A stretch of DNA of 64,000 bases from Candidatus Magasanikbacteria bacterium RIFCSPLOWO2_12_FULL_43_12 (GTDB lineage: Bacteria; Patescibacteriota; Patescibacteriia; Magasanikbacterales; UBA922), in NCBI GenBank assembly GCA_001783065.1, contig MFQN01000019.1, positions 309-64,308 on the forward strand, given 5' to 3'. Positions 16,966 through 61,511 of this stretch are shown in pieces. Position 1 is the stretch's first letter. The number at the start of each line of letters is the position of its first letter. A program made the translations under genes and the position numbers. Under the pieces are notes generated by a model that ran no database searches, was not told the origin of the DNA, and saw only the letters and a list, made by a program, of their open reading frames with translations.

Positions 16966-18061
16966 AGTTATGCCTCACGAAGTTTTAAAGGAAAATTTGA
17001 TCAGCGTTATTGTCCCCGTTTACAATTGTGAAGATTATCTTGCCAATTGCGTTGAAAGCCTGATTGCCCAAAATTATAAAAATTTTGAAATTATTTTGAT
17101 TAATGATGGATCTACGGATAGGAGTGGAACAATCTGTCATTATTACGCGTCGCGCGACAGTGGAATTAAAGTGATTGATAAAAAAAATTACGGACCAGCG
17201 GCGGCTAGGAATGACGGTATCGCTCTGTCAAAGGGCGAGTTCATATTTTTTATTGACGCGGATGATTTAGTGGAACCGAATGCCATAAATTTGTTAATAG
17301 ATAGTTATCGTCAGAATAATGCGGAAATTGTCATTGGGGATTTTTATAAATTTGACGATGTTTCGCGTACTGATTCAGGCCATGGTCATTTTCTTTCTGA
17401 CAGTCTATTAATGACGAAGCCGGACATTGTGGATTACGCGCGTTCATATTTAAAAAAACCTAATCGATTTCCGTTGTTTGCTTATTCCTGGGGCAGACTT
17501 TTTAAGTCAGCTATTATCAAGAATAACAATATTTTGTTTAATGTTGATTTGCGGACTTTTGAAGATGTGGCTTTTAATTTTGACTATTTGAATTATGTTG
17601 ATAAAATATTTTTTTTGAAATCAGCTATCTATGGTCATCGCATATATCACCATTTTGCCTCGGCGACAATGGCCATTGGCGATGATTTTTATGGGATGTT
17701 TGGATATAAGAAAGCCTTGGAGGCAATCCGGAATTTTCTTAAAAATCATGATCCTACGATTAACCCGCAAAAAGAAATTGGGCATGCCGACATTTATTTG
17801 ACAATTATTCAGATAGTTCGCATTTGCGGGCAAATCAATCAGGCAAATAAAAAGAAGATTTACAATTTTATCCGCGCGATAATCGGCGATATGAATTTCC
17901 GTAATAACCTTCGATTTTATTCGCCATCAACCGGTGATAGTAAAATTCTTCCTGTTTTGATGAAGCTGAAACTCGTTTGGCCGATTATTATGGTGTGTAA
18001 ATACAAGGCTGATAGAAGGTATAAAAAAACAACAAAAAAATCATATGAATTTAGACGATGA
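16946..18061 (+). CDS. Family 2 glycosyltransferase
   Basis: ISVIVPVYNCEDYL, ILINDGSTD and IDADD are present. An alternative start at 16970 (MPHEV...) would remove the overlap with the upstream gene. Confidence 0.7.
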   Translation: MDWKLFEVMPHEVLKENLISVIVPVYNCEDYLANCVESLIAQNYKNFEIILINDGSTDRSGTICHYYASRDSGIKVIDKKNYGPAAARNDGIALSKGEFIFFIDADDLVEPNAINLLIDSYRQNNAEIVIGDFYKFDDVSRTDSGHGHFLSDSLLMTKPDIVDYARSYLKKPNRFPLFAYSWGRLFKSAIIKNNNILFNVDLRTFEDVAFNFDYLNYVDKIFFLKSAIYGHRIYHHFASATMAIGDDFYGMFGYKKALEAIRNFLKNHDPTINPQKEIGHADIYLTIIQIVRICGQINQANKKKIYNFIRAIIGDMNFRNNLRFYSPSTGDSKILPVLMKLKLVWPIIMVCKYKADRRYKKTTKKSYEFRR

Positions 18062-19274
18062 TTTTTCCGTCCAACAAACCATTCTGGATCTTAAAATTAC
18101 GATTTTACCGATAATCATTTTTGGCAGTGGAATTGTTGGAGAAGTATTGTTTAAAGCATGTGAAAATACCGGTATTAAAGTTACCGGTTTTTGTGATAAT
18201 AATATAAAAAAAACAAAAGATTCCAAGTGCGGAATCCCAGTGTTCTTTACGCCGGAATTAAAAAGTAAATATTCCGATGCCGTTGTTTTGATATCAGCCG
18301 CCGACATTCGAGACGCAATTACTCAATTGCAAAGTTTAAAATTTTATAAATGGGCCCCCTGCACTTTTTTATTGAGAGACTTCAATACATACCAGCACCA
18401 ATTCAGCGCGCCTGGAGATTTTGTCCAGTATGCTACCGATACTTGTATTCTATGTCATGATAGTTATTCACTTCCGGACAAACTTTTTTTAAGAAGCGTA
18501 GATATAGTGATAACGGAAAGATGTTCGCTTAAATGCAGGGATTGTTCTAATCTGATGTCGTATTATCAAAAACCGATGAACTGCGATTCGCAGGAATTAA
18601 TTAAAACCATAGATGCCTTTTGTAACATTGTAGATGAAGTTAATGAGTTTAGAGTATTAGGCGGTGAGCCGTTTATGAATCCAGAGTTTGATATAATTAT
18701 AGATAGACTGATGTCAGAACCCAAAGTTAAAAAAATAATCGTATATACAAATGGGACCATCGTTCCATCAGATGGAAAAATTCAATGTTTGAAGAGTAAA
18801 AAAACGCTTTTGATAATAACTGATTATGGGCCGGCGCTTTCTAAGAATCTGGGGATTTTGACAGAAAAACTGTTAAGCGAGGGGATTTCATATTTCGTGC
18901 AAAAGGCGGGTGGATGGACAGATTGTAATAAAATAGCGAGAAATTATAGGAATTCTTTTCAGCAAATGGAAATTTTTGACAATTGTTGCGCCAAAAATAC
19001 CATTACAATTTCGGAAGGGAAGCTGCACCGATGTCCTTTTGCCGCGAATGCCATGAGGCTGAGAGCGGTGCCTGATTTTAATGACGATTATGTGGAGTTT
19101 ATGCAAACACGAGATGATCATAGCGAAATAAAAAAGAAAATCAGGTCATTTTTATTTGATAAGAAATTTTTAGCGGTCTGCGATTATTGCAGAGGAAGGT
19201 CGTTTGGAGATGAAGAAATACCGTCAGCAATTCAGGCTGATAAATCATTAGACTATGAACGATATCAATACTAA
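18045..19274 (+). CDS. Radical SAM enzyme with N-terminal Methyltransf_14-like (NDP-sugar-binding-like) domain and C-terminal Cys-rich (SPASM/twitch-like) region
   Basis: It has a CX3CX2C motif (ERCSLKCRDC) and a GGEPF motif. The N-terminal ~100 aa (IIFGSGIVGEVLF...VVLISAAD) resemble the C-terminal domain of the adjacent C-methyltransferase. C-terminal cysteines are CCAKN...CPF...CDYCRG. Confidence 0.6.
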   Translation: MNLDDDFSVQQTILDLKITILPIIIFGSGIVGEVLFKACENTGIKVTGFCDNNIKKTKDSKCGIPVFFTPELKSKYSDAVVLISAADIRDAITQLQSLKFYKWAPCTFLLRDFNTYQHQFSAPGDFVQYATDTCILCHDSYSLPDKLFLRSVDIVITERCSLKCRDCSNLMSYYQKPMNCDSQELIKTIDAFCNIVDEVNEFRVLGGEPFMNPEFDIIIDRLMSEPKVKKIIVYTNGTIVPSDGKIQCLKSKKTLLIITDYGPALSKNLGILTEKLLSEGISYFVQKAGGWTDCNKIARNYRNSFQQMEIFDNCCAKNTITISEGKLHRCPFAANAMRLRAVPDFNDDYVEFMQTRDDHSEIKKKIRSFLFDKKFLAVCDYCRGRSFGDEEIPSAIQADKSLDYERYQY

Positions 19275-22200
19275 AAAACTGAATTATCTTTTAGTAATGC
19301 CGCGTCTAGTCCAAAATATTGGCGATGGCTATGTTTTTCCTCTTGGGGTGGCTTACGTTTCTTCAAGCATGAAAAAAGCGGGGTTTAATGTTTTCACATT
19401 AAATTTAAATCACAAAGAGGGCGATGTTTTTGAAATAATTAAAAAAACAATTGAAAAGAATAATATCCATGTTGTCGCGACCGGAGGCCTTTCGCCTCAA
19501 TATCATCTTGTTAAAAACGTTATTGAATCGGCAAAAAAAGTTAATAATAATATAATCACAATTGTGGGTGGCGGCATAATTACCGCCGATTGTGAAACCG
19601 CCATGAAGGCGCTGGAATTTGCAGATTATGGAGTCATCGGCGAAGGCGAAGAAACGATGTGTGAACTTTGCCGTATTTTAGAAAATAACGGAGACCTTTC
19701 AGTTTGCGACGGGCTTATTTATAAGGAAAGAGAGGGTTTTAAAGTTACAAATCCGCGCAAAGATATTGCTGATGTCAACGGTATTCCGTGGCCAGACTAC
19801 GAGGGTTTTGATACCGATAAATATCTTGAGGTTCCGCCGGCTGGATTTGCGGGATTAAATCAAAAACGAATGATCTGCATGCTGGGAAGCCGCTCCTGTC
19901 CTTTTCAATGCACTTTCTGCTGTCATACTCTCGGTAAAAAATATCGACGCCGATCTCTCGATGATTTTTTTGGCGAACTGGATTATTTAATTTCCCGCTA
20001 CAAAATTGATTATATTTCTTTAGCCGATGAGGTATTCGCCCCGGATTTTGAAAACGCGAAAAAATTCTGCGATCGAATAAAACAATACAATATTCATTGG
20101 TATGCCGATTTTAGAGTTGATTTGGTAAAGCCCGAACTCCTTCCTATTTTAAAGGAAAGCGGTCTTGATGTTATGTTTTTCGGTTTAGAAAGCGCGGACA
20201 ATAGGATTTTAAAAAGCATGCGCAAAGGCATTACCATTGAACAAACCGAAAGAGTTCTCAAGATGGTGTATGATGCCGGAATTGCCGGTTACGGTTGTTT
20301 TATATTCGGCGATATTGAAGAAACTTTTGAAACGGCTTTGAATACGCTTAACTGGTGGCGAGCGCACAAGGAATATGGCATCCATTTAACTCTTATTAAG
20401 CCGTTTCCCGGTTCATTTATTTACAGATACGCCTGCGAAAAAGGAATTATTAAAGATCCTATCCAATATCTCAAAGATGGCTGTCCCCAGGTGAATATTT
20501 CAAAGCTGAATAATGAGGAGTTCGCGGAAATTATGCGTCAGATTTCGGAGTCATCACACTTGTTGAGCAAGCCCGAATCTTTGGAATTGCTGGCCGTTGA
20601 TCCGGTGTTGGGGCGAGAGTCAGTGTCAGGGCGGTGCTCTAAGTGCAAGCAAAAGAATGTATGGGACGATATTAAATTATTCGCAAACGATTACATCACT
20701 TGCAGTCATTGCGGACAGAAATTTGATAATCCTAATCCGCCCCAATTAATTGAAAACCTTGATAAAAATCTCAGTTTGCTTTTAGCCAAACACGGCAAAG
20801 TAGCCGTATGGGGTATGACGCTGATAATAATGGAGTTATTCAGAAATTCAAAAATACTCAATAATCCGAATATTTTCGCGATAGACATTTCAGACAGCAA
20901 AAGAAAAATGAGTCTTGCCGGAAAAAAAATTTATGCTCCGGAAATTTTAGATAAAGAAAATATCCCTGTCGTGCTAATAGCGGTGCCGTCGCACGCCGGC
21001 CAGATTTCCTGTCAAATTAAAGAGAATCATATCAAAGTTACGGAAATAATCGATATCTGCAAGCTATGTGACTTCAATCCCATTATTCCTCAAAAATTAA
21101 ATTATCTTTTGGTAATGCCGAGGCTTGTCCAGAGAATCGGCGACGGCTATTCTTTCCCGCTCGGGATAACGTTTATTTCTTCCAGCATGAAGAAAGCCGG
21201 GTTGAATGTAAGAACGATCAATTTAAATCATTGCGAGGGAGACGTTTACGATATTTTAAAAAAAGAAATTGAAGAAAACAATATTGACGTAATCGGCGTC
21301 GGCGGTTTGTCATTTCAATATAACACGGTAAGGCTTGTTGTTGAATCCGCGAAAAAAATTAAAAAAGATATTATAACGATAGTCGGCGGAGGAATTATCA
21401 GCGGTGATCCGGAGCCGGCAATGAAAGCTTTGGAATACGCCGACTTCGGTGTAATTGGAGAGGGTGAGATGACAATGAACGAGCTTTGTTCTGCGTTGGA
21501 AGGCAAAAAAAACTTTACAGATATAGAGGGAATAATTTATAAAAATAGGGATTCTTATACCACAAATAATCCGCGTAAAGAAATGGCAAACATAGATACG
21601 CTTCCTTGGCCGGATTATGGCGGGTTTGAAATTCAAAAATATTTGGATTCTACCCCGCCGGGCATTAGTGGTTTGAACAGAAAAACGCTTTTTATGTTAG
21701 CGAGTCGTTCGTGTCCGTATAGTTGTACGTTTTGTTTTCATACGAATGGCAGAAGATATCGACAAAGATCACTTGATGATTTTTTTGCAGAACTTGAGTC
21801 CGTTGTCTCGCAGTATCAGATTGAATTTGTTTGTATGGCCGACGAGCTCTTCGCGCGCAACATAGAACGGGTTAAAGAATTTTGCGAGAAAATAAAAAAG
21901 TTTAATATTAAATGGTGGGCACAGTTCAGAGTTGATGATATTACTCTTGAGTTGCTTGCTGTCTTAAAGGCTGGCGGCTGCGAGGTTATGTCGTTCGGAT
22001 TGGAAAGCGCCGACAATCGCATTTTAAAAAGCATGAGAAAAGGCATCACCATAGAACAGATTGAGCGAACGCTAAGGATGGTTTATGAAGCGGGAATATC
22101 ATTTGAGGGTGCGTTCATATTCGGGGATATTGAGGAAACAGTGGAAACCGCCAATAATACTTTGAAATGGTGGCGGGAACACGCGGAATATAGAATTACC

Positions 22201-22926
22201 CTTAATTTGATTACGGTTTACCCGGGTTCTTATCTATATATGTACGGGAATGAAAAAGGAATCATAAAAGATAAAATTCAATTTTTAAAAGACGGATGCC
22301 CGCAGATAAATGTTTCAAAATTGTCGGATAAGGAATTATCCGAACTGGTAAGGCAATTGGTGGAGGCGCCGATAAGCATGACCAAACAGTTAATTTCGCC
22401 GGAACTTAAGACCGTGGATTTTCAAACCGGTAGAATCGCTCTTAGCGGGTCATGCGTAGTTTGCGATCACCGAAGCGAATGGAGCGACATTAGAATGTTT
22501 ACCATGAATTTTTTGCCGTGCAAAAAATGCGGACAGAAATATAATGTGCCGCTTTTTCCAGAGATTAGAAAAAATATTGATGACAATTTGCAAATGCTCT
22601 TGCGTAAATATGCCAAAGTAGCGGTGTGGGGCGTCAATTATCATTCATCCGACCTATTCAAAAATTCTTCCGTTCTGCACGATCCAAATATATATCCTGT
22701 TGATATTTCCCAGACGAAACGAAAGATGGATTTATACGAGAAAAAAATATTTGCTCCCGAAATTATAGATCGTGAAAATATCAAAGCTATTGTTGTCGCG
22801 GTGCCCGTTTACTACGCGCAGATCGCGTCTTTGGTGCAAACAAATCACAGGGGTGTCGTTGAAGTGATAGACATATGCGCTTTGACAAGCCGACAATACT
22901 CAAGTCAAGAAAGGATTGGTGTATGA
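19255..22926 (+). CDS. Tandem-fused double cobalamin-binding radical SAM enzyme (two complete B12-rSAM modules, each followed by a Zn-ribbon-like and a Methyltransf_14-like domain)
   Basis: Residues ~8-613 and ~614-1223 are full-length paralogs. Examples are KLNYLLVMPRLVQNIGDGYVFPLG vs KLNYLLVMPRLVQRIGDGYSFPLG, SRSCPFQCTFCCH vs SRSCPYSCTFCFH, and GLESADNRILKSMRKGITIEQ in both. Each half has a B12-binding Rossmann N-terminal domain, a CX3CX2C cluster, C..C......CSHCGQKF or C..C...CKKCGQKY pairs, and a C-terminal KVAVWG... domain. Confidence 0.8.
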   Translation: MNDINTKKLNYLLVMPRLVQNIGDGYVFPLGVAYVSSSMKKAGFNVFTLNLNHKEGDVFEIIKKTIEKNNIHVVATGGLSPQYHLVKNVIESAKKVNNNIITIVGGGIITADCETAMKALEFADYGVIGEGEETMCELCRILENNGDLSVCDGLIYKEREGFKVTNPRKDIADVNGIPWPDYEGFDTDKYLEVPPAGFAGLNQKRMICMLGSRSCPFQCTFCCHTLGKKYRRRSLDDFFGELDYLISRYKIDYISLADEVFAPDFENAKKFCDRIKQYNIHWYADFRVDLVKPELLPILKESGLDVMFFGLESADNRILKSMRKGITIEQTERVLKMVYDAGIAGYGCFIFGDIEETFETALNTLNWWRAHKEYGIHLTLIKPFPGSFIYRYACEKGIIKDPIQYLKDGCPQVNISKLNNEEFAEIMRQISESSHLLSKPESLELLAVDPVLGRESVSGRCSKCKQKNVWDDIKLFANDYITCSHCGQKFDNPNPPQLIENLDKNLSLLLAKHGKVAVWGMTLIIMELFRNSKILNNPNIFAIDISDSKRKMSLAGKKIYAPEILDKENIPVVLIAVPSHAGQISCQIKENHIKVTEIIDICKLCDFNPIIPQKLNYLLVMPRLVQRIGDGYSFPLGITFISSSMKKAGLNVRTINLNHCEGDVYDILKKEIEENNIDVIGVGGLSFQYNTVRLVVESAKKIKKDIITIVGGGIISGDPEPAMKALEYADFGVIGEGEMTMNELCSALEGKKNFTDIEGIIYKNRDSYTTNNPRKEMANIDTLPWPDYGGFEIQKYLDSTPPGISGLNRKTLFMLASRSCPYSCTFCFHTNGRRYRQRSLDDFFAELESVVSQYQIEFVCMADELFARNIERVKEFCEKIKKFNIKWWAQFRVDDITLELLAVLKAGGCEVMSFGLESADNRILKSMRKGITIEQIERTLRMVYEAGISFEGAFIFGDIEETVETANNTLKWWREHAEYRITLNLITVYPGSYLYMYGNEKGIIKDKIQFLKDGCPQINVSKLSDKELSELVRQLVEAPISMTKQLISPELKTVDFQTGRIALSGSCVVCDHRSEWSDIRMFTMNFLPCKKCGQKYNVPLFPEIRKNIDDNLQMLLRKYAKVAVWGVNYHSSDLFKNSSVLHDPNIYPVDISQTKRKMDLYEKKIFAPEIIDRENIKAIVVAVPVYYAQIASLVQTNHRGVVEVIDICALTSRQYSSQERIGV
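19276..21093 (+). repeat. Tandem intragenic duplication, unit 1 (~1.8 kb)
   Basis: The codon for K8 (19276) aligns with K614 (21094), offset 1818 nt. Nucleotide identity is ~70-75% in the stretches I compared by eye, and protein identity ~55-60%. Confidence 0.7.
21094..22923 (+). repeat. Tandem intragenic duplication, unit 2
   Basis: See unit 1. It is fused in frame with no stop codon between the units. Confidence 0.7.
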
Positions 22927-22981
22927 TTTCAGATTCTAAGATGGCTATTGATTTTAAAATTTATTTAAGTTTAATTAACAT

Positions 22982-24130
22982 ATGACCAACACAGAAGAAT
23001 TAAAACCGATTGAAAGCGTAAAAAGGGACCAGCTCAAACGAGAAAAACCGTATGTTTATGAGAAGATCATGAAATATGATGGCAAGATTAAAAGAGGCGA
23101 AAGCATTGCCATCCTTCAATTTCAATATGACTATACCTGCAATTTTCTTTGCGAGCACTGTTGTATAACAAAATTAAGACGCAAATCGATTGGAGGGTGC
23201 GCGTTACCAACCAACACAACATCTACCGTTATAAAGCAAGGTGATAAGTCATTTACGCCAGACGATGTAAAGGAGCTTTGTAGGCAGGCGGACGAAATGG
23301 GGCTCGCACATTTTGTGATCACTGGAGGCGAGCCGTTAGTATTTACTGACTTTGATAAAATAGTTGAAGCGGTTGATCCGCAGAAATTTTACATTACTTC
23401 TGATACAAATGGTTGGTTTTTGGATGAAAAAAGAGCGAAGCATTTAAAAGACATAGGGGTTGATAAAGTTCAGATAAGCCTGGACAGTCTTTCCGCCGCG
23501 GAGCACGATAATTTTAGGAAACATGCCGGCGCGCATGAAAAAGTCCTTAGAGCCATTGACGCCGCCAAGAATGCCGGACTGAATGTTCTTGTCCAAACTG
23601 TTGTTACCAAGCAAAGAGTTAGATCGCAAGAATTTGAAGATTTTTTAAAATTTTTAAATAACGAAAAAGGCGTGCCGGTGTTTATAACCTACGCGAAGCC
23701 GGTGGGGGATTGGGAAGGAAATTTTGATGCCATGGTTAACCAAGAAGAGATGGATTATGTCAGAGAGTTGGAAAAGAAATATAATGTATTTACGCATTTA
23801 ACCCCGTCGTATGGGCTTGATCTCGGCTGTATCGCTGTTAAAAGAATGGTTTCCATTACAAAGTATGGAGATATAATGCCCTGCCCCTACATGCATGTTT
23901 CTCTCGGAAATTTTTTCAAGGAACCGTTAAAAGATATTTTTGAAAGAGGATTGAACACCAAGCAGTTCGGGCAGTATTATGAATCATGTTATATGGCTGA
24001 AGACAGGAAATTTATTGATAAGTATATCGCGGGAAGAGTATATGGCAAAAAGTTGCCGGTGCCTTACAACGAGGTGTTCACCGAAGAAGACTTTATTAAG
24101 CCAAGCGAGCGAAAACTTTATAAGGATTAA
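22982..24130 (+). CDS. Radical SAM enzyme (MoaA/SPASM-twitch-like)
   Basis: It has a CX3CX2C motif (CNFLCEHC) and ITGGEPLVF. C-terminal cysteines are CIAV...CPYMH. Confidence 0.7.
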   Translation: MTNTEELKPIESVKRDQLKREKPYVYEKIMKYDGKIKRGESIAILQFQYDYTCNFLCEHCCITKLRRKSIGGCALPTNTTSTVIKQGDKSFTPDDVKELCRQADEMGLAHFVITGGEPLVFTDFDKIVEAVDPQKFYITSDTNGWFLDEKRAKHLKDIGVDKVQISLDSLSAAEHDNFRKHAGAHEKVLRAIDAAKNAGLNVLVQTVVTKQRVRSQEFEDFLKFLNNEKGVPVFITYAKPVGDWEGNFDAMVNQEEMDYVRELEKKYNVFTHLTPSYGLDLGCIAVKRMVSITKYGDIMPCPYMHVSLGNFFKEPLKDIFERGLNTKQFGQYYESCYMAEDRKFIDKYIAGRVYGKKLPVPYNEVFTEEDFIKPSERKLYKD

Positions 24131-24133
24131 TGT

Positions 24134-25183
24134 ATGAATGAATTAGCAACCGACCTGGATGAAATTTTAGAAAAAACCTCGGGCCTTTGGGAAGAATTGC
24201 GCGGGCAGAGAGTTTTTATTACGGGTGGAACCGGATTTTTTGGTTGCTGGCTGCTGGAAAGCTTCGCTTGGATTAACGAAAAACTTGCGCTTAATGCCTC
24301 GGCTGTCGTGTTGACAAGGGACTACGAGGCGTTTAAAATGAAAGCGCCGCATCTTGCGTCTAATCCGTCAATAAAATTTCACATTGGAGACATTAGAAAT
24401 TTTGAATTTCCGGATGGGGATTTTTCGCATGTTATCCACGCGGCCGCCACTTCGGCTATTGCTACCTATAATAATGAAAACCCACGGGTCAAATACGATA
24501 CGGTCGTGGAGGGAACGAGGCATGCTTTAAATTTTGCCGTTGAATGTCGCGCCAAAAAATTTCTTTATACGAGCTCGGGCGCCGTCTACGGAAAACCGCC
24601 CGCCGAGATGACGCATATCCCTGAAGATTATAATGGCGCTCCCGACTCCACCGCTGTCAAATCGGCTTGGGGCGAGAGTAAGCGAGCTGCGGAATTTTTA
24701 TGCGCCTATTATGCCAATAGATATGATTTAGAAATAAAGACGGCGCGCTGTTTTTCTTTTATTGGCCCGTATCTTCCTTTGGATATTCATTACGCAATTG
24801 GAAATTTTATTCGCGACGCGTCGCGCGGCGGTCCGGTGCGAGTCAATGGCGACGGCACGCCTCGCCGTTCATATCTTTATGCCTCTGATTTAATGATTTG
24901 GCTGTGGACAATATTTTTTAAGGGTGTTTCAGGCAGGCCATATAATGTCGGCTCCGAGGATGATGTAACTATTGCGGAATTAGCCCATATTGTGGTAAGC
25001 TGTTTGCAAAGTTATTCGGAGGTAAAAATCGCCAAATTACCGGCGCCAAACACGACGGAGGAGCGCTATGTGCCGTCAACCGGTCGCGCGCGGATGGAAT
25101 TGGGTCTTAGACAGACGGTCGGGCTTGAAGAGGCAATTAAACGAACGGCAGGATTATTTAAAAAAATTAATAAAACAGTATGA
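24134..25183 (+). CDS. NAD-dependent epimerase/dehydratase (extended SDR), possibly non-canonical active site
   Basis: FITGGTGFFGCWL Rossmann motif and a SSGAVYG block. At the expected YxxxK position the sequence reads AWGESK (Trp in place of Tyr). Confidence 0.65.
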   Translation: MNELATDLDEILEKTSGLWEELRGQRVFITGGTGFFGCWLLESFAWINEKLALNASAVVLTRDYEAFKMKAPHLASNPSIKFHIGDIRNFEFPDGDFSHVIHAAATSAIATYNNENPRVKYDTVVEGTRHALNFAVECRAKKFLYTSSGAVYGKPPAEMTHIPEDYNGAPDSTAVKSAWGESKRAAEFLCAYYANRYDLEIKTARCFSFIGPYLPLDIHYAIGNFIRDASRGGPVRVNGDGTPRRSYLYASDLMIWLWTIFFKGVSGRPYNVGSEDDVTIAELAHIVVSCLQSYSEVKIAKLPAPNTTEERYVPSTGRARMELGLRQTVGLEEAIKRTAGLFKKINKTV

Positions 25184-26703: not shown

Positions 26704-26710
26704 TTTATTT

Positions 26711-27634: not shown

Positions 27635-27639
27635 TTCCT

Positions 27640-51892: not shown

Positions 51893-52882
51893 ATGTCTCT
51901 TGATTTTTTGGGCGGTAAAACAATTTTAATCACCGGCGGCACCGGTTCATTTGGTCAGCGATGCGTTCGCATACTTTTGGGACAAAGCGCGGCCGCTAGA
52001 ATCGTGATTTTTAGTCGCGATGAGTTAAAACAATCGCAAATGCAAACTGAAATTTCAGACCCGGACGGACGGCTGCGTTTTTTTATCGGCGATATCCGCG
52101 ATGTAGATAGGTTGATTATGGCTTTGCAAGGCGTTGACTATGTTATTCATGCCGCGGCGCTTAAACAAGTGCCGGCTCTGGAATATAATCCGTTTGAGGC
52201 GGTTAAAACCAATATTATAGGCACGCAGAATGTGATTATGGCGGCGTTAAAGAATAATGTTGAAAAAATGGTTTTGGTATCTACTGATAAGGCCGCTAAT
52301 CCAGCCAATCTTTACGGAGCCACTAAATTATGCGCTGAGCGTTTGATGACCAGCGCCAATGCCTATTCAGGCAAGGGCGGGACAAAGTTTGGCGCTGTGC
52401 GTTACGGTAATGTTCTTGGCAGTCGCGGCAGTATTATTAAAATTATTGAACAACAGCGCGCTACCGGGGAGATTACTTTGACCCACGAAGATATGACACG
52501 ATTTTGGATTACGCTTGACCAGGGGGTGGAGGTAGTGATGATGGCGCTTGAAAAAATGTATGGCGGAGAAGTTTTTGTTCCCAAGTTGCCAAGCATGAAG
52601 ATTAAAGATTTTATCAGTTTATTAGCGCCGGATAGTAAAATAAAAATTGTCGGTATCAGGCCTGGAGAAAAACTGCACGAGGCATTGGTTACGCTGGAGG
52701 AGGCAAGGCACACGAAAGAATTTTCTAATCATTATGTCATTATGCCAGAGCACGATTGGTGGTTGGGTCATGATGTCTATGGTAGCGGCGTAAAAGTGGA
52801 AGAAGGATTTTATTTCGCTAGCCATAATAACGAGCAGTGGTTAGACGAAGAAGGAATGAAAAAATTACTCACTACTCTATGA
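51893..52882 (+). CDS. pseB: UDP-N-acetylglucosamine 4,6-dehydratase (inverting), PseB/FlaA1 family
   Basis: ILITGGTGSFGQRCVRILL and YGATKLCAE (YxxxK) are present. 329 aa, Polysacc_synt_2 type. Confidence 0.85.
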   Translation: MSLDFLGGKTILITGGTGSFGQRCVRILLGQSAAARIVIFSRDELKQSQMQTEISDPDGRLRFFIGDIRDVDRLIMALQGVDYVIHAAALKQVPALEYNPFEAVKTNIIGTQNVIMAALKNNVEKMVLVSTDKAANPANLYGATKLCAERLMTSANAYSGKGGTKFGAVRYGNVLGSRGSIIKIIEQQRATGEITLTHEDMTRFWITLDQGVEVVMMALEKMYGGEVFVPKLPSMKIKDFISLLAPDSKIKIVGIRPGEKLHEALVTLEEARHTKEFSNHYVIMPEHDWWLGHDVYGSGVKVEEGFYFASHNNEQWLDEEGMKKLLTTL

Positions 52883-55702: not shown

Positions 55703-56890
55703 ATGAGTAACCTTGTCAACGTTGGAAGCGCAAGAGTCGTTAGCGATCCAAAATTGTTAAAACGTTGCGCAAAATGCGTCATGCCAGAAACACAGGAGGC
55801 AATTACTTTTGATAGTCAAGGCGTATGTAGCACTTGCAGGCAAATTGAGTTTAAGCAGGAAAAGATTAATTGGGCGGCGCGTGAGAAAGAATTTTTAGCC
55901 TTGTGCGATCAATACCGGGGAAAAAATCAATATGATTGTATTGTCCCGTTTAGCGGCGGCAAAGACAGCACTTTCGCCGCTTATAAATTGGTTCATGATT
56001 ATGGTTTGAAGCCGCTGGTCGTGCAATATCATCATCAGCTTTTGCGTCCAAAAGTATTGGCAAACGCGGAAAGAACGATTAAACGTTTGGGCGCGGATTT
56101 TTTATCTTTCAAAACAAATTGGCAATTAATAAAAAAACTGATGCGCGTCAGTCTTGAACGGAAAGGCGATATTTTGTGGTATCAGCACACGGCAATTTTT
56201 TCCCTGCCGATGCACATTGCGATAAAATTTAACGCTCCTCTCGTTGTTTGGGGCGAACCATCCGCTGAATATACAAGTTATTATGGATACGACGAAACCG
56301 AAGAAGTTGATGAAAGACGTTTTAATATGGGGACCAACCTCGGCATCACAGCCGATGATATGTTGGGTTTTTTGAATGATTCCAAAATTACGATGCGTGA
56401 TTTGTGGCCGTATCAGTATCCGAAACGCGCCGATTTAGCGGCAATTGGATGCCGTTCGATTTGTTTGGGCAGTTATATACCTTGGGATGTAAAAAAGAAT
56501 TCACGGATTATTTCAGAAGAGTTGGGTTGGGAGGGCGATGAGGTGGAGGGGGTGCCGCCGGAATATTATTATGAAAAAATTGAAGATATGATGCAGGGCG
56601 TTCAGGATTATTTGAAATTTATAAAGCGCGGTTATGGACGCATGAGCCACTTGGCTTCAATTGATATCCGCAATGGTCGCATGACGCGTGAACAGGCCTT
56701 AAAACTCGTTGAAGAATGGGAGGGGAAAAGGCCGGCGAGTCTAGATGTTTTGCTTCATTGGTTGAATATTTCCGAAGCTGAATTTTATCAAATCGCCAGT
56801 CTTCACGTTATTAGCCCGTGGCGTCACGATCCCGCGAACATAAGGCGCGGTAAAGAGCTGTGGGATCAAAAGCTGTGGACTAAAGATTAA
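55703..56890 (+). CDS. N-acetyl sugar amidotransferase (PP-loop ATPase; WbuX/PseA/LfnA family)
   Basis: N-terminal Cys pairs (CAKCVMPE...CSTCRQ) and the VPFSGGKDSTFAAYKL PP-loop motif. It is followed by hisH/hisF homologs. Confidence 0.8.
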   Translation: MSNLVNVGSARVVSDPKLLKRCAKCVMPETQEAITFDSQGVCSTCRQIEFKQEKINWAAREKEFLALCDQYRGKNQYDCIVPFSGGKDSTFAAYKLVHDYGLKPLVVQYHHQLLRPKVLANAERTIKRLGADFLSFKTNWQLIKKLMRVSLERKGDILWYQHTAIFSLPMHIAIKFNAPLVVWGEPSAEYTSYYGYDETEEVDERRFNMGTNLGITADDMLGFLNDSKITMRDLWPYQYPKRADLAAIGCRSICLGSYIPWDVKKNSRIISEELGWEGDEVEGVPPEYYYEKIEDMMQGVQDYLKFIKRGYGRMSHLASIDIRNGRMTREQALKLVEEWEGKRPASLDVLLHWLNISEAEFYQIASLHVISPWRHDPANIRRGKELWDQKLWTKD

Positions 56891-56900
56891 AGACCAAGAT

Positions 56901-57518
56901 ATGATTGCCGTCATTGATTATGGAATGGGAAATCTGGCTTCTATTAAAAAGGCTTTGGAGTATGCGGGCGGAAAACCTTTTTTAACCAGTAATCCACAAG
57001 ATTTGGAGCGGGCGGAGAGAATTGTTCTGCCCGGTGTCGGAGCGTTTGCCGAAGGCATGTCTCATCTTAAAGAATCAGGTATGGATGTAAAATTGCGAGA
57101 GGCTGTGCTTAAAGGAAAAAAACCGTTATTTGGCATTTGTCTCGGCATGCAATTGCTGGCAAAAAAGAGTTATGAGTTTGGCGAATATCCGGGGCTGGGG
57201 TTAATTGACGCGGAAGTGAAAAAATTTGATTTTTATGATACATTTCCAAATCTGCGCGTACCCCACGTGGGTTGGAACGCTGTTGGATTTAAAATTGCCT
57301 CGCCTTATTTTGAAGGGATAAAAGACAACAGTGATTTTTATTTTGTGCACAGTTATCACGTGGTTTGTCGCGAGCCGCGGCTCGTTGCGGCTGTAAGCGA
57401 CTATGGCGGGGAGTTTACCGCGGCGATCGCCAAGGATAATATTTTTGCCACACAATTCCATCCGGAAAAAAGCCAGCAATATGGACTTAAGATGCTGGAG
57501 AATTTTGTGGCTTTATAG
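56901..57518 (+). CDS. hisH: Imidazole glycerol phosphate synthase glutamine amidotransferase subunit homolog (HisH/WbuY-like)
   Basis: IAVIDYGMGNLASIKKAL and the GICLGMQLL catalytic Cys motif are present, with a PEKS H/E dyad region. Confidence 0.85.
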   Translation: MIAVIDYGMGNLASIKKALEYAGGKPFLTSNPQDLERAERIVLPGVGAFAEGMSHLKESGMDVKLREAVLKGKKPLFGICLGMQLLAKKSYEFGEYPGLGLIDAEVKKFDFYDTFPNLRVPHVGWNAVGFKIASPYFEGIKDNSDFYFVHSYHVVCREPRLVAAVSDYGGEFTAAIAKDNIFATQFHPEKSQQYGLKMLENFVAL

Positions 57519-58286
57519 TTGTTTTCTATGGTGAAAATGCGTATAATTCCACTGTTACTTTTAAAGAACGGCCGGCTGGTAAAAACCGTTCAGTTTAGCG
57601 GATATCGCGATGTTGGCGATCCGGTGGCTACGGCGAAAATATATGACGCGCAGAGAGCAGATGAAATGATTCTCTTGGACATAGAAGCTAGCAAGGAGAA
57701 TCGCGGAACCCTGCTTAATATTGTCAGAGAGGTTTCTGGGGAATGCTTCATGCCGCTTGGGGTCGGTGGAGGAATACGGGCACTTGGCGATATCCGTTTG
57801 TTGCTTCAAAGCGGCGCGGATAAAGTAGTAATTAATACGGCGGCGGTTGAGGATCCGAGCTTGGTCAGAAAGGCGGCAAAAAAATTTGGCTGTTCCACAA
57901 TTGTTGTCTCTATAGATTACAAAAAAAATTCAGCTGGTCGTCCGGAGGTGTTTGTGCGTGGCGGCAGTAAATCAACCGGTCTCGACCCGGTAGAATGGGC
58001 GATAAAGGTTGTAGCCGAAGGAGCCGGAGAAATTATGTTGACTTCAATAGAACGCGATGGGATGATGCGCGGGATTGATCTGGATATTATTCGCACGGTA
58101 GCCGACTTGGTTTCAGTTCCTGTAATTTGTTCTGGCGGAGTGGGAACTTTAGAAGATTTTAAACGTGGATTTATAGATGGTCATGTTTCGGCGGTTGGGG
58201 CGGGCAGCATATTTCATTTTACCGACCAAAGCATAATTAAAACCAGGCGTTATTTAGTTGGTGAAGGCATCAACGTACGCCGTTAA
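57519..58286 (+). CDS. hisF: Imidazole glycerol phosphate synthase cyclase subunit homolog (HisF/WbuZ-like)
   Basis: [19 protein letters not shown] and [12 protein letters not shown] are HisF patterns. An alternative start is ATG at 57537. Confidence 0.85.
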
Positions 58287-58300: not shown

Positions 58301-59365
58301 ATGAAACCGATGATTATTAATACCCCAAAAGGAAAAAGAAAAATCGGACCAGGCAATCCGGCGTTTATTATTGCCGAGATGTCCGGCAACCATAATCAGG
58401 ATTTTAATCGCGCGTTAAAAATTATTGATGCCGCCGCGGCCGCCGGTGTTGACGCGGTAAAATTGCAGACATACACGCCGGATACAATCACGATGGATTC
58501 AGACAAAGATTATTTTCGGGTAAAAATAAAAAATGTGTGGCAGGATCAAATTTTATATAATCTTTACAAACAGGCTTACACACCATGGGATTGGCAGCCG
58601 AAATTAAAAAAGTATGGCGAAAATAAAGGGTTGGTGGTTTTTTCCACGCCGTTTGACAACACCGCGGTTGATTTTTTGGAAAAAATGAAAGTGTCGTTAT
58701 ATAAGATTGCTTCTTATGAAGTTGGCGATATTCCCTTGTTAAAACGAGTCGGCCAAACTAAAAAGTCGGTGATTATGTCGCGCGGCATGGCTTCCAAAGC
58801 TGAAATTCAACTGGCGATAAAGACCCTCAAAGAAGCCGGCGCTTCTCAAGTTGCCACACTGCACTGCGTTAGCGCTTATCCGGCTACAGCCGAACAAATG
58901 AATTTGGCGACCATTCCAGATTTGGCCAAACGCTTTAAAGTTATTTCCGGATTGTCTGATCACACGTTAGGAATTACTGCTTCCGTCGCTTCTATCGTTT
59001 TGGGCGCCAATATTATTGAAAAGCATCTGACTTTGCGGCGAGCTGATGGCGGCCCCGACGCCACCTTTTCTTTGGAGCCGGGAGAATTTAAAGATTTAGT
59101 TCAAACAGTGCGTGAAGCGGAAGCGACGATTGGCAAACCGAATTATGAATTGACCGAAGGTGAAAAAATTGGAGTATTATATCGCAAATCATTGTTTGTG
59201 GTGAAAGACATCAAAGCTGGTGAGAAGTTCACGCCACAAAATGTGCGTAGTATTCGTCCAGGCCATGGTTTGCCGCCAAAATATTATGAAGAGATTTTGG
59301 GACGCGCGGCGAAAGTTGATATTGAACGAGGCGAACCGTTAGACCGGGGAATGGTCAGGCGGTAA
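58301..59365 (+). CDS. pseI: Pseudaminic acid synthase / NeuB-family nonulosonate synthase
   Basis: FIIAEMSGNHNQD, KIASYEV, MSRGMAS, LHCVSAYPA and LSDHTLG motifs are present, plus a C-terminal SAF domain (VKDIKAGEKF). 354 aa. Confidence 0.85.
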   Translation: MKPMIINTPKGKRKIGPGNPAFIIAEMSGNHNQDFNRALKIIDAAAAAGVDAVKLQTYTPDTITMDSDKDYFRVKIKNVWQDQILYNLYKQAYTPWDWQPKLKKYGENKGLVVFSTPFDNTAVDFLEKMKVSLYKIASYEVGDIPLLKRVGQTKKSVIMSRGMASKAEIQLAIKTLKEAGASQVATLHCVSAYPATAEQMNLATIPDLAKRFKVISGLSDHTLGITASVASIVLGANIIEKHLTLRRADGGPDATFSLEPGEFKDLVQTVREAEATIGKPNYELTEGEKIGVLYRKSLFVVKDIKAGEKFTPQNVRSIRPGHGLPPKYYEEILGRAAKVDIERGEPLDRGMVRR

Positions 59366-60012: not shown

Positions 60013-60065
60013 AACTGCCCCCCCAAATCAATTTATGGATAAAGAGACGTTAAATCATAAAGAAT

Positions 60066-61511
60066 ATGGCATCTTGTAAATTTTTGTTCATTTATCCTGA
60101 TATAAATGAGTTTAGCCATGCTTATGACGGCAATAATGGTTGTTATTATTATGGAATAGCCCAATTATCCAGTGTTCTTAAAAGGGTTGGAGTGGAGACC
60201 GGGCTTTTACATTACACACTCCGTCCAGCAAAAGAAAAATTTTTAAACGATATAGATAATTTTACTCCTGACATTATCGGTTTTTCTTCAACGACGATGA
60301 TGATTGCGGATGTCTATGAATGGGTCAGATGGATACGGGAGTCTGGCCGTCATTCCCCACTCGTATTGGGTGGAAGCCACGCGACATTGGACTATAAAAG
60401 AGTGGCGGCGGATGGATTATTTGACGTTATTTTTATTGGAGAGTCCGAGGAATCAATTGTGGAATATTGTCAACACTATCGTGAGCGCCCCACAAATATT
60501 CTTGGCACGGTCGTCAAGGGTGACAATGATTACATCTTTAATCCTGCGCGTGTCTTGGAGCAGAATCTAGATAGATACCCGTTTCCTGACTGGACCCTTT
60601 TTGATTATGAAAGTCTTTATGATATGAAAACACACAAGCGCGGCATTCTTATGGCCGCGCGCGGCTGTCCTTACCGTTGCAGTTTTTGTTCAAATGACAG
60701 GTACGCTGATTTATATCGCAATAAAGGAAAAATCCTTCGCATAAAGACAGTGGATTATGTTATTCGAGAGGCGAAGGCAATGAAGATTCAGTATCCAGCT
60801 ATCAATTATTTTCAATTTGTGGAAGATACCGTGGGTTTTGACCGAATATGGTTGAAAGAATTCAGCGAAAGATGGCCGAGAGAGGTGGGGATGGATTTTT
60901 ATGCGAATCTGAATGTAAACGTTTGCAATGATGACACAATAAAATTGTTGGCTTTAGCCGGTTGTCGACGTTTGCAAATTGGCGTTGAGACGGGTAATGA
61001 GTCGCGCCGGAAAGAAATTTTAAAGAAGCCGGTTCTTAATAAAACTATTGAGGCAGTGGTTAAAGAATGTCACAAGCATGACATTGATGTTAATAGTTTG
61101 AACATGATTGGTTTGCCGTTTGAGAGCGAGGAAAACATATTAGAGACAATTCATTTTAACGCCCGCCTGAAACCGAAATTGTTGCAGTGTACGATTTTTT
61201 ATCCTTTTCCACATACTTCACTGTATGACTATTGCGTTGAACACAAACTGATCAGTGAGAGTAACCTCTCGAGAACTGATTATTTTCGGGAGAGTATTTT
61301 GGAAAATCCAAAAATTTCTCAAGAGGCGTTATATTTTTTTAGGGATAATTTTAAGACATTGATAAAGATTTATAGATATGTTAATATTGATTGGCTGATA
61401 AGGCTGGTTGGGTATAAGAGGGCGGGTAAAATTATTAGACTTTTCAGGACAAGGTCTGAATTAAAAAAGTGGCTTTATCAACCGCGTAAGAAATTATTAA
61501 AGTATGTTTAA
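60066..61511 (+). CDS. Cobalamin-binding radical SAM enzyme (class B rSAM)
   Basis: B12-domain N-terminus (FIYPDINEF...GIAQLSSVLKRVGVET, FIGESE) and AARGCPYRCSFC (CX3CX2C). 481 aa. Confidence 0.8.
   Translation: MASCKFLFIYPDINEFSHAYDGNNGCYYYGIAQLSSVLKRVGVETGLLHYTLRPAKEKFLNDIDNFTPDIIGFSSTTMMIADVYEWVRWIRESGRHSPLVLGGSHATLDYKRVAADGLFDVIFIGESEESIVEYCQHYRERPTNILGTVVKGDNDYIFNPARVLEQNLDRYPFPDWTLFDYESLYDMKTHKRGILMAARGCPYRCSFCSNDRYADLYRNKGKILRIKTVDYVIREAKAMKIQYPAINYFQFVEDTVGFDRIWLKEFSERWPREVGMDFYANLNVNVCNDDTIKLLALAGCRRLQIGVETGNESRRKEILKKPVLNKTIEAVVKECHKHDIDVNSLNMIGLPFESEENILETIHFNARLKPKLLQCTIFYPFPHTSLYDYCVEHKLISESNLSRTDYFRESILENPKISQEALYFFRDNFKTLIKIYRYVNIDWLIRLVGYKRAGKIIRLFRTRSELKKWLYQPRKKLLKYV

Follow-up and report, generated by a model that had tools for sequence, protein, structure and literature searches.

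Six radical SAM (rSAM) domains encoded in the sugar-coat island of a CPR bacterium (Candidatus Magasanikbacteria) fall into three separately conserved modules, not into one system: module 1 belongs to CDP-3,6-dideoxyhexose acyl-branching, and modules 2 and 3 belong to CMP-nonulosonic-acid pathways. We hold the scheme as a whole, in which a radical layer sits on an acyl-branched dideoxyhexose and rSAMs D and E act on nonulosonic acids, with moderate confidence.

Radical SAM domains and their genetic setting

We analyzed a 64,000-nucleotide stretch of DNA (the window) that lies in an island of at least 80 kb, about 82 kb of which was covered including the window. An earlier note had placed six radical SAM domains, four of them B12-dependent, among nucleotide-sugar and glycosyltransferase genes. 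ORF calls and Pfam searches recovered all six in five ORFs at the coordinates given there:

18045-19274, + strand: rSAM A (409 aa); PglD_N/Methyltransf_14-like domain of nucleotide-sugar type at the N-terminus, then the radical SAM core and a C-terminus rich in Cys; motif from C160; PF04055 36.3 bits
19255-21069, + strand: B1, first half of ORF B (1223 aa); B12-binding-type and radical SAM domains, then a 4-Cys zinc ribbon and a small Rossmann module; motif from C215
21070-22926, + strand: B2, second half of ORF B, a paralog that shares the architecture of B1; motif from C820
22982-24130, + strand: rSAM C (382 aa); radical SAM and partial SPASM/twitch; motif from C53; PF04055 85.4 bits, PF13186 24.4 bits
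42410-43831, + strand: rSAM D (473 aa); B12-binding-type and radical SAM domains, in a CMP-sugar/nonulosonic-acid context; motif from C216; PF04055 68.5 bits, PF02310 60.7 bits
60066-61511, + strand: rSAM E (481 aa); B12-binding-type and radical SAM domains; motif from C201; PF04055 71.3 bits, PF02310 53.9 bits

ORF B scored 117.5 bits with PF04055 and 119.6 bits with PF02310, each over two stretches. Thus all five ORFs exceeded the PF04055 cutoff (29.5 bits), and the N-terminal B12-binding-type domains of B1, B2, D and E exceeded that of PF02310 (32.1 bits). The SPASM domain that the note had proposed looking for was found in rSAM C (PF13186 cutoff 21.5 bits), where this region has three Cys only. 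Each radical SAM domain carries one canonical CX3CX2C motif, and each of these ORFs matched the radical SAM profile. The E-values, together with synteny conserved in unrelated contigs, rule out chance; no rSAM protein of the window reached a curated NCBIfam family cutoff. rSAM A matches PF04055 in the N-terminal half of that profile alone, and this weak score is backed by alignment of the full core (residues 152-385) to the solved chain 7wzv (E = 8e-9) and by conservation over the full length of the family (564 representatives at E ≤ 1e-30).

Nearly all remaining ORFs of the window encode nucleotide-sugar, glycosyltransferase or glycan-export proteins by Pfam, including a C-methyltransferase (PF08484) and a ThDP enzyme, so the glycan context holds. 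The rSAM genes overlap their neighbors by 4-50 nt, which points to a single operon. In hosts that range from 31 to 61% GC they keep close synteny with sugar genes, with strong statistical support. Rosetta-stone fusions join rSAMs to a GT2 domain, to an SDR, to one another and to a TcaB9-like NDP-sugar module. These fusions uphold a role of the rSAMs in sugar chemistry; the idea of one pathway with six radical steps gives way to three conserved modules.

A proposed acyl-branched dideoxyhexose module with a radical layer

Module 1 (14085-33233) surrounds rSAM A, B1, B2 and rSAM C with the following genes:

14085-14870, + strand: glucose-1-phosphate cytidylyltransferase-like enzyme, CDP-hexose entry (TIGR02623, its best NCBIfam match by far, 274 bits, below the cutoff of 300)
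14877-15842, + strand: CDP-glucose 4,6-dehydratase-like SDR (best NCBIfam match TIGR02622, 188 bits, cutoff 278)
15793-16965, + strand: TcaB9/TylC3-type NDP-hexose C-methyltransferase with Zn, SAM and C-terminal domains (Methyltransf_23 54.1, Methyltransf_14 45.5 with cutoff 23.5, Methyltransf_13 28.0 bits)
16946-18061, + strand: GT2a, GT2 glycosyltransferase and partner of rSAM A (PF00535 139.8 bits)
24134-25183, + strand: SDR (Pfam Epimerase), a candidate for a YerF-like role as reductase of the side chain or of the 4-keto group
25180-26703, + strand: fusion of a NeuB-type PEP-condensing domain (PF03102 138 bits) and a cupin (Cupin_2)
26711-27634, + strand: HAD-IIB (Cof-type) phosphatase (Pfam Hydrolase_3)
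27640-29310, + strand: YerE-like ThDP-dependent C-branching enzyme (three of three TPP domains match)
29321-29791, + strand: NUDIX hydrolase (PF00293)
29796-31120, + strand: GT2b (PF00535) and a GtrA-like small membrane protein, a candidate polyprenyl-phosphate sugar synthase pair
31929-33233, + strand: RfbH (E1), CDP-4-keto-6-deoxyglucose 3-dehydrase (NF011936 699 bits, cutoff 423)

Comparison of 21 cassette loci with 22 non-cassette loci revealed that the C-methyltransferase (16/21 versus 0/22), the NeuB-cupin fusion (15/21 versus 0/22) and the ThDP enzyme (15/21 versus 1/22) travel with the cassette, as the earlier note had guessed in tying the rSAMs to the C-methyltransferase and the ThDP enzyme. 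Orthologs of rSAM C (42-68% identity), RfbH and the cytidylyltransferase-like enzyme (at least 35% identity) were present in 16, 14 and 11 of the 21 cassette loci, respectively. Several of the loci have a GT2b ortholog (about 60% identity), and one locus (L001) has a GtrA_DPMS_TM gene at the corresponding place (21480-21866). Neither the SDR at 24134-25183 nor the phosphatase is conserved by orthology across the 21 loci; in other cassette loci a different SDR adjoins the ThDP gene.

Fusions and overlaps further define units within the module. The GT2a and rSAM A genes overlap by 17 nt, and all seven long A-family members tested are GT2-rSAM A fusions. The N-terminus of rSAM A aligned to the C-methyltransferase's C-terminal domain (hhalign, 78% probability, E = 1.8e-5), and in P0393, a member of its family, the domain scores above the cutoffs of both PglD_N and Methyltransf_14. 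B1 and B2 are 57% identical, orthologs specific to B2 share 56-73% identity with it, and the core cassette is retained in loci having B2 only; in locus L012, the B2 ortholog is fused to a SPASM rSAM.

Among the closest known systems are YerE-like clusters for yersiniose A, erwiniose and caryophyllose (Steitz et al. 2022, PMC9306805; reviewed in PMC12247030). Like these, the window is a surface-glycan locus with CDP-4-keto-3,6-dideoxyglucose genes (its RfbH passes the cutoff), a ThDP enzyme, a candidate SDR reductase and a candidate supplier of a gamma-hydroxy-alpha-keto acid; it also has a SAM methyltransferase, as does the R. palustris cluster. The top PDB match of the ThDP enzyme was 8rph (363 bits, versus 239 bits for the next, labeled acetolactate synthase), which is the YerE-like JanthE, identified by its CDG motif (PMC12247030). 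Unlike the known clusters, whose hosts are proteobacteria or mycobacteria, the window of this CPR host has no pyruvate aldolase, and a NeuB-type enzyme fused to an isomerase stands in its place: the NeuB-type domain matched 3g8r (SpsE-like) at 375 bits and NeuB at 83 bits, and its cupin, which matched D-lyxose isomerase 2y0o (E = 6e-7), resembles a sugar ketol-isomerase. We saw no E3 (RfbI/AscD) reductase in the window that could partner RfbH; this weighs against the scheme proposed below, as does the poor conservation of the SDR at 24134-25183 and of the phosphatase. A further difference is the presence of three or four radical SAM domains (A, B1, B2 and C), and the word "radical" is absent from Steitz et al. 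2022 (PMC9306805).

We propose that module 1 follows the published acyl-branching scheme. The cytidylyltransferase, 4,6-dehydratase and RfbH would convert CDP-glucose to CDP-4-keto-3,6-dideoxyglucose, and the ThDP enzyme would then add an acyl branch at C4 from a gamma-hydroxy-alpha-keto acid, which the NeuB-isomerase fusion, in place of the aldolase, may form from PEP and an aldose. The TcaB9-type enzyme would place a methyl next to the keto group. In B1 and B2, a B12-type rSAM catalytic unit is joined to the zinc ribbon and C-terminal domain known from TcaB9-type methyltransferases. Both would bind this CDP-sugar too and alkylate it, in all likelihood by methylation, at carbons beyond the reach of polar chemistry. 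rSAM C would partner B2, and rSAM A, GT2a and B1 would act as a unit. The novelty of module 1 would be this radical layer. TcaB9, KijD1 and MtmC (NDP-hexose C-3-methyltransferases) have a SAM-binding methyltransferase domain, which A, B1 and B2 lack; a radical SAM domain replaces it in all three, and B1 and B2 have a B12-type domain as well. A limited literature search found no description of this architecture.

CMP-nonulosonic-acid modules

Both in the window and in other organisms, rSAMs D and E sit within CMP-nonulosonic-acid clusters, and each has an SDR as its partner or as part of a fusion. Genes around D and E are:

43833-45617, + strand: fused TMD-NBD ABC exporter, HepA/MsbA/PglK-like (Pfam and NCBIfam), which probably exports glycan
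47084-47845, + strand: CMP-ulosonic-acid cytidylyltransferase (CTP_transf_3, PF02348 91 bits; KdsB match weak)
51893-53982, + strand: PseB (inverting UDP-GlcNAc 4,6-dehydratase; TIGR03589 447 bits, cutoff 408) and a PseC-like aminotransferase (DegT 405 bits)
58301-59365, + strand: PseI, pseudaminic acid synthase (TIGR03586 469 bits, cutoff 340)
61504-63433, + strand: SDR and PylC-like ATP-grasp (Pfam), conserved partners of E

The D family is large: at 48% identity or above it exceeds 120 proteins, from CPR bacteria and Omnitrophica. One member (P0307) is a D-SDR fusion adjoining DegT, GFO and CMP-transferase genes, and another (P0239) adjoins NeuB and a CMP-transferase. The ABC exporter of the window is paired with a Capsule_synth gene; locus L092 has this pair too, but a D gene does not adjoin it there. 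Close relatives of E are few (59-72% identity), one being from a CPR bacterium, and the gene order from NeuB through E, SDR and ATP-grasp is kept in L092, L093 and L096 (the window's own contig). In our scheme, D and E would each act with an SDR to modify pseudaminic-acid-type sugars.

Radical chemistry and cobalamin

GenK, GenD1 and Fom3 methylate unactivated sp3 carbons, and the substrate of Fom3 is CMP-linked. These class B methylases, classed as Csp3 methyltransferases (PMC12931638), share the B12-binding-type plus radical SAM architecture of the window enzymes; as described, they serve actinomycete antibiotic pathways, whereas the window enzymes belong to loci for cell-surface glycans, and the TcaB9-like module is an addition in B1 and B2. 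Among solved structures, the best sequence matches of B1 and D were the methylase MgmA/QCMT (9ccb) and CysS (E = 6e-15, both domains aligned), with AprD4 among the top matches of each. For E (AF2 model, pLDDT 92.8), Foldseek placed MgmA (1.9e-22) and AprD4 (1.4e-21, TMq 0.70) on top, with TsrM, OxsB, CysS and TokK also close. These solved B12-rSAMs are only 13-17% identical to the window enzymes and act on proteins, carrier-linked small molecules and nucleosides, not NDP-sugars. The nearest solved relatives of rSAM C, BlsE (7vob; a cytosylglucuronate decarboxylase acting on a sugar nucleoside) and MoaA, were weak matches (E about 1e-12).

By its predicted model, E is as near to the cobalamin-free dehydratase AprD4 as to MgmA, and AprD4 is its only significant full-domain sequence match in the PDB. 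On an alternative but unlikely reading, the B12-type enzymes, or at least some of them (D and E with their SDRs in particular), might be AprD4/AprD3-like pairs rather than cobalamin methylases. In apramycin C3' deoxygenation, AprD4, an rSAM with an N-terminal Rossmann domain lacking B12, acts as a 1,2-diol dehydratase, and its dedicated SDR AprD3 then acts as an NAD(P)H reductase, for net deoxygenation of the sugar. That an SDR always follows E, that D and an SDR are fused in P0307 and that the island yielded no B12 genes all fit such pairs; any sugar locus, however, is rich in SDRs. AprD4 and ArsL fall within the B12-rSAM similarity network yet bind no B12, so a PF02310 match is no proof of B12 binding (PMC12931638). 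Against this reading, the PF02310 matches span the whole profile well over the cutoff, the NCBIfam AprD4 model reached only 40-124 bits (cutoff 500), the B12 domain of D aligns with that of the true B12 methylase CysS, and five B12-rSAMs are close structural neighbors of E.

HpnI is a GT2 enzyme, and the B12-rSAM HpnJ acts after it in a proposed ring contraction of a hopanoid-linked sugar. The grouping of B1 with GT2a and rSAM A parallels this logic, and HpnJ (279 bits) and BchE (269 bits) top the NCBIfam matches of ORF B, raising the improbable alternative that B1 and B2 perform a radical rearrangement or C-C cyclization, as modeled on HpnJ, OxsB and BchE, to yield a carbocyclic or ring-contracted sugar. 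Several B12-rSAMs are indeed not methylases (PMC12931638); but both scores are far under their cutoffs (577 and 481), PhpK-type methylases score about the same (251 bits), among solved structures B1 is nearest in sequence to a methylase (MgmA), and a module taken from a C-methyltransferase points to methyl transfer. That the rSAM genes are mere neighbors of glycan genes and act on a peptide, lipid or cofactor is very improbable: SPASM and B12-type rSAMs commonly tailor RiPPs and lipids, and NCBIfam gave weak matches to maturases of RiPPs and to enzymes of ladderane and tetraether lipids, but the fusions, synteny and gene overlaps described above tie them to sugar genes, and the window showed no genes for a precursor peptide or for lipids.

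In the methylation reading, the four B12-type domains would use cobalamin. Consistent with the earlier note, Pfam revealed no cobalamin biosynthesis or uptake gene among window ORFs of at least 150 aa; no cobalamin riboswitch or other Rfam family was found in the window, and no cob/btu gene or riboswitch in the ~82 kb of island. The host is of groundwater origin and has a tiny genome. CPR genomes are commonly regarded as lacking cofactor biosynthesis, and the CPR host makes the question of a B12 source sharper; AprD4-like chemistry would make this supply problem disappear. The presence of five rSAM genes in three conserved modules of a sugar locus suggests that the surface sugars of this bacterium are probably carbon-branched to an unusual degree and that the cell may rely on scavenged vitamin B12.

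Radical SAM and B12-type domains in the glycan locus

Five open reading frames (ORFs) with radical SAM cores had been proposed in the earlier note, and we recovered all five with exactly the same boundaries:

18045-19274, rSAM A, radical SAM enzyme
19255-22926, ORF B (1223 aa), halves B1 and B2, each with a radical SAM and a B12-binding-type domain
22982-24130, rSAM C, radical SAM enzyme with a SPASM region
42410-43831, rSAM D, radical SAM enzyme with a B12-binding-type domain
60066-61511, rSAM E, radical SAM enzyme with a B12-binding-type domain

These ORFs contain the six predicted radical SAM domains (two in ORF B), all above the Pfam gathering score (PF04055, 36.3-117.5 bits across the five ORFs versus a cutoff of 29.5) and each with one [4Fe-4S]-ligating CX3CX2C motif (6/6). 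The four B12-binding domains (PF02310) likewise exceeded their cutoff of 32.1 bits, with two in ORF B (119.6 bits in two stretches) and one each in D (60.7 bits) and E (53.9 bits). The weakest case is rSAM A, which scored 36.3 bits versus 29.5 with half of the profile aligned. This marginal call is upheld by the solved radical SAM chain 7wzv, which aligns with rSAM A over the entire core, and by full-length conservation of its family (564 representatives at E<=1e-30). For rSAM C, the SPASM profile PF13186 scored 24.4 bits versus a cutoff of 21.5; the region has three cysteines only (283, 301 and 336), and the C-terminal domain is thus twitch-like at most. The glycan setting was borne out, as essentially all remaining ORFs encode nucleotide-sugar enzymes, glycosyltransferases or export proteins, among them the expected C-methyltransferase (with a Methyltransf_14 domain) and three-domain ThDP enzyme.

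Magasanikbacteria are members of the Candidate Phyla Radiation (CPR). The five radical SAM ORF proteins are identical to Candidatus Magasanikbacteria MAG proteins from the Rifle aquifer that are labelled hypothetical, and the same locus recurs in independent samples on 22 contigs of up to 124 kb. Upstream of the window, glycan genes extend for 10 kb or more; downstream, they run to a window-equivalent position of ~69,900 and stop at an EamA gene on the opposite strand. The island, which lies almost entirely on one strand, is thus at least 80 kb long. CPR genomes are ~1 Mb in size and usually lack cofactor biosynthesis; at ~1 Mb, we estimate that the island would take up ~8% of the genome, an unusually large share.

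Several other genes in or beside the window bear on the glycan. Three ORFs (10271-11611 (-), 11608-13005 (-) and 33236-35002 (+)) have no Pfam match and 9-10 hydrophobic segments each, and may encode membrane proteins of the Wzy, ligase or GT-C kind. PMT_2-type GT-C proteins number at least four (window 1386 and 34958; L008, which covers a flank of the window, 2727 and 5617) and hint that proteins or lipids are glycosylated on the external face of the membrane. Formyltransferase-domain proteins are encoded at 3838-4620 and 50108-50830, the latter directly after a DegT aminotransferase, which suggests that amino sugars of the glycan are N-formylated.

A mobile cassette that extends the YerE scheme

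Scanning metagenomes with a B-type protein alignment yielded 79 loci, which were searched with every window protein. Loci of at least 12 kb were then compared after splitting them at 48% identity of the B-like protein. At least three of six core genes (C-methyltransferase, rSAM C, NeuB-cupin, ThDP enzyme, RfbH-like aminotransferase-family protein and cytidylyltransferase) were found in 17 of the 21 loci with a B-like protein of at least 48% identity versus none of the 22 loci below that value (Fisher p=1.4e-8). In the same comparison, the nonulosonic-acid genes, D, E, the ABC transporter and the capsule-synthesis genes did not co-travel with this cassette. The locus had been viewed as one radical-tailored glycan system: the sugar-tailoring idea largely held for the cassette (module 1, 14085-33233), while the single pathway gave way to three independent modules, with D and E in the other two. 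The cassette loci range in GC from 31 to 61% and one belongs to an Alphaproteobacteria MAG, indicating that the cassette is widespread and mobile and not a CPR peculiarity. Where B-type proteins are annotated, they carry generic labels or are mislabelled as BchE or YgiQ.

Besides the radical SAM genes, module 1 contains:

14085, RfbF-like gene
14877, RfbG-like gene
15793-16965, C-MT, TcaB9-type C-methyltransferase
16946-18061, GT2a, glycosyltransferase
25180-26703, NeuB-cupin
27640-29310, ThDP enzyme
31929-33233, RfbH, CDP-4-keto-6-deoxyglucose 3-dehydrase

RfbH scored 699 bits versus a cutoff of 423. The best match of gene 14085 is glucose-1-phosphate cytidylyltransferase (274 bits, below the cutoff of 300), and that of gene 14877 is CDP-glucose 4,6-dehydratase (188 bits, below the cutoff of 278). 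Together, the three enzymes would produce CDP-4-keto-3,6-dideoxyglucose, which YerE-type ThDP enzymes use as their acceptor (PMC12247030; PMC9306805). No E3 (RfbI/AscD) reductase for RfbH was found among window ORFs of at least 150 aa; a gene elsewhere in the genome could supply one. The ThDP enzyme is predicted to belong to the YerE-like subclass: its best PDB match is 8rph (363 bits), followed at 239 bits by a chain annotated as acetolactate synthase, and chain 8rph contains the CDG cofactor motif described for the YerE-like enzyme JanthE (PMC12247030). Biosynthetic acetolactate synthase was rejected as the identity of this gene because no ALS equivalog cutoff was reached and 8rph is far closer.

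The unifying scheme of Steitz et al. for acyl-branched sugars combines deoxy-keto-sugar genes, a YerE-like enzyme, a reductase and an aldolase that makes the gamma-hydroxy-alpha-keto acid donor, with a SAM methyltransferase in one case (PMC9306805). The cassette agrees with this scheme except at one step, where the NeuB-cupin would replace the aldolase. A search of the window found no pyruvate aldolase; in its place sits a fusion of a NeuB-type PEP-condensing domain and a cupin, and this fusion is conserved together with the ThDP gene. The SpsE-like structure 3g8r is the nearest match of the NeuB domain, and the cupin has similarity to D-lyxose/mannose ketol-isomerases. When PEP is condensed with an aldehyde, the product is a 4-hydroxy-2-oxo acid, the donor class preferred by ErwE and MMAR_2332, and the product of the NeuB-cupin would feed the ThDP enzyme in the aldolase's stead. 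As a widely conserved cassette, module 1 extends the known YerE scheme. The NeuB-cupin is labelled 'spore coat protein' in NCBI and UniRef, a label inherited from SpsE that almost certainly has no meaning for a CPR bacterium.

ORF B, its C-terminal module and its partners

ORF B is a fusion of two old paralogs. B1 and B2 are 57% identical, and orthologs that occur elsewhere as separate genes (63-75% identity for B1, 56-73% for B2) are each closer than B1 is to B2. The B1 and B2 genes adjoin without being fused in three loci (L029, L021 and L016). An assembly artefact was ruled out because the identical 1223-aa protein is found on the 22 independent contigs and a second fused homolog exists (1209 aa, 85% identity).

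Gene fusions establish which proteins act together. In locus L012, B2 is fused to an ortholog of the SPASM enzyme C, which couples C to B2. The long members of the rSAM A family are GT2-rSAM A fusions in 7/7 cases tested, in agreement with the 17-nt overlap of the GT2a and rSAM A genes in the window. Furthermore, rSAM A is present in 6/7 loci with B1 versus 1/8 loci with B2 only (p=0.01), usually in the order B1-GT2a-A. In the cassette locus L011 (14843-15902), two Fe-S_biosyn/IscA-like genes and one NifU_N gene directly follow the SPASM radical SAM gene, an Fe-S assembly insertion that is consistent with a high Fe-S demand of the cassette.

At the C-terminus, B1 and B2 are both extended by ~165 aa that include four invariant cysteines. 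Profile-profile comparison matched this extension to the Methyltransf_14 C-terminal domain of the adjoining C-MT family (91.5% probability, E 8.4e-7), and its highest Foldseek TM-scores were with MtmC and KijD1, which are related C-methyltransferases. For B1, the module was resolved by profile-profile and fold comparison only: a BLASTP comparison with the C-methyltransferase fell short of significance, a Pfam scan of the single sequence hinted weakly at a zinc ribbon and a Rossmann fold and at nothing more, and a match to MtrB in an HMM search of the PDB was spurious. Thus, the C-terminal module is common to B1/B2 and the TcaB9-type NDP-hexose C-methyltransferases; however, Pfam detected no counterpart of the class I SAM-binding methyltransferase domain of those enzymes in B1 or B2, where B12-type and radical SAM domains lie upstream of the module. 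B1 and B2 are therefore not TcaB9-type members and share a module only. The TcaB9 C-terminal domain helps to hold the dTDP-sugar. The N-terminal domain of rSAM A is akin to the same C-MT domain (78% probability, profile-profile), and in one member of the rSAM A family it passes the Pfam cutoffs for both PglD_N and Methyltransf_14. On these domain comparisons, A, B1 and B2 each carry a module common to nucleotide-sugar-binding enzymes.

Judged by sequence and predicted fold, B1 and B2 would represent a new domain architecture that ties radical SAM chemistry to NDP-sugar binding by joining a radical SAM unit to the substrate-binding module of a C-methyltransferase, a fusion that appears not to have been described before. 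The borrowed methyltransferase module tilts the likely chemistry toward methyl transfer, with a rearrangement catalysed by B1/B2 as a possible alternative. Distant relatives outside the cassette (P0012, P0008, P0016, P0032 and P0047; 35-40% identity), one of them from Azospirillum, are fused to TPR repeats, and P0012 and P0047 additionally have a GT2 domain and a class I SAM methyltransferase domain, respectively. The wider B1/B2 family may therefore have a general link to glycosylation.

D and E, cobalamin and the CPR host

E has few close relatives (59-72% identity), whose sole named source is the CPR bacterium Staskawiczbacteria. The gene string NeuB-(GNAT or DUF218)-E-SDR-ATP-grasp-HAD-kinase-aminotransferase-HAD-GFO-CMP-transferase occurs on the window's own contig and in two other organisms (L092 and L093), so that the E-SDR adjacency is kept in three organisms. 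In the window, this string comes after genes for PseB, PseI and a WbuX amidotransferase, all above cutoffs and the first two at equivalog level (447 bits versus 408 for PseB; 469 versus 340 for PseI). The D family has more than 120 proteins at 48% identity or higher, from several CPR lineages and Omnitrophica. One member adjoins NeuB, CMP-transferase and ATP-grasp genes; another, P0307, is a D-SDR fusion adjoining DegT, GFO and CMP-transferase genes, an arrangement that window 42410-50830 mirrors. These neighbourhoods and the fusion link both D and E with an SDR partner and with CMP-activated sugars of the nonulosonic-acid type.

Additional genes surround these two enzymes:

40780-42291 (-), Capsule_synth (KpsC/KpsS-family) protein
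43833-45617, ABC transporter
45636-47072 (+), Capsule_synth (KpsC/KpsS-family) protein
55703-58286, WbuX-type N-acetyl sugar amidotransferase (358 bits versus a cutoff of 203), then HisH-like and HisF-like genes

The WbuX/HisH-like/HisF-like trio is the one known for making acetamidino groups on amino sugars, and on its presence the pseudaminic-acid-type sugar is probably amidinated. Behind E-SDR-ATP-grasp, HAD, APH-type kinase, class III aminotransferase, HAD, GFO/IDH oxidoreductase and CMP-transferase genes follow in L092, L093 and the window's own contig downstream of the window (L096 13346-18988); this looks like a second CMP-sugar or side-chain pathway. The Capsule_synth family includes beta-Kdo transferases of capsule pathways, and the two Capsule_synth proteins, which flank D and the ABC exporter, may transfer ulosonic acids made in the locus. 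The transporter was considered as a cobalamin importer for its position directly downstream of D, a reading rejected because it is HepA/MsbA/PglK-like and the ABC and Capsule_synth pair occurs in L092 without an adjoining D; we read it as a putative glycan exporter.

The named B12 radical SAM families (HpnJ, BchE, PhpK, HpnR, KedN5, BzaD, MgmA-type and ladderane) all scored far below their NCBIfam cutoffs; the best result was HpnJ (279 bits versus 577.6), with HpnJ, BchE and PhpK about equal. The closest solved sequence relatives are B12 methylases, MgmA for B1 and, across both domains, CysS for D. AprD4 recurs in every hit list and is the only full-domain PDB match for E. A 2026 review places AprD4 and ArsL inside the B12-radical SAM similarity network, yet neither binds cobalamin (PMC12931638). 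Thus, a PF02310 match does not prove B12 use. A serious rival to cobalamin chemistry in D and E is that they form AprD4/AprD3-like deoxygenation pairs with their SDR partners, given the conserved E-SDR adjacency and the P0307 fusion. The predicted model of E (pLDDT 92.8) fits the cobalamin-free AprD4 (E 1.4e-21, TMq 0.70) as well as it does B12-bound MgmA (E 1.9e-22, TMq 0.66); however, scores for the AprD4 family itself (NF033070) reached 124, 46 and 40 bits versus a cutoff of 500.

As the earlier note had reported, the window has no gene for cobalamin biosynthesis or uptake among ORFs of at least 150 aa. It also has no cobalamin riboswitch at the Rfam gathering threshold, and neither cob/btu genes nor a riboswitch was found in the 10 kb upstream or 7.5 kb downstream of it. 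That the host is a CPR bacterium makes the question of the B12 source more pointed. Among GTDB genome contigs, ORF B matched a single, 28%-identical Woesearchaeota protein; the MAG of this DPANN archaeon carries two genes for B12-type radical SAM enzymes with ~25% identity to E and D (L007 3269-4450 and ~11650-12870), making Woesearchaeota another small-genome lineage with such enzymes. A literature search returned nothing relevant on Magasanikbacteria radical SAM enzymes, CPR cobalamin, B12 radical SAM enzymes in O-antigen or capsule, or 7WZV.

Tentatively, and with some doubt as to the whole, we propose that B1/B2 represent a new architecture in which a cobalamin-dependent radical SAM unit is set on a TcaB9-type NDP-sugar-binding scaffold and, with the SPASM enzyme and the GT2-rSAM pair, would alkylate carbons of CDP-activated acyl-branched deoxysugars by radical chemistry. 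This would give a hyper-branched class of surface sugar new to glycan chemistry and widespread in uncultured bacteria; in a CPR cell, the coat would then rely on cobalamin scavenged from its neighbours.

Radical SAM enzymes with B12-type domains are a very large, mostly uncharacterised group, and none is known to act on a nucleotide-sugar for a cell-surface glycan. The locus provides a defined, testable case, a cassette of about ten genes found in unrelated uncultured bacteria in which the YerE scheme is extended by radical chemistry, and its enzymes could serve as biocatalysts for sugar C-alkylation. For the organism, it raises the questions of what purpose such a coat has in an episymbiont and whether the cell depends on cobalamin supplied by its community.
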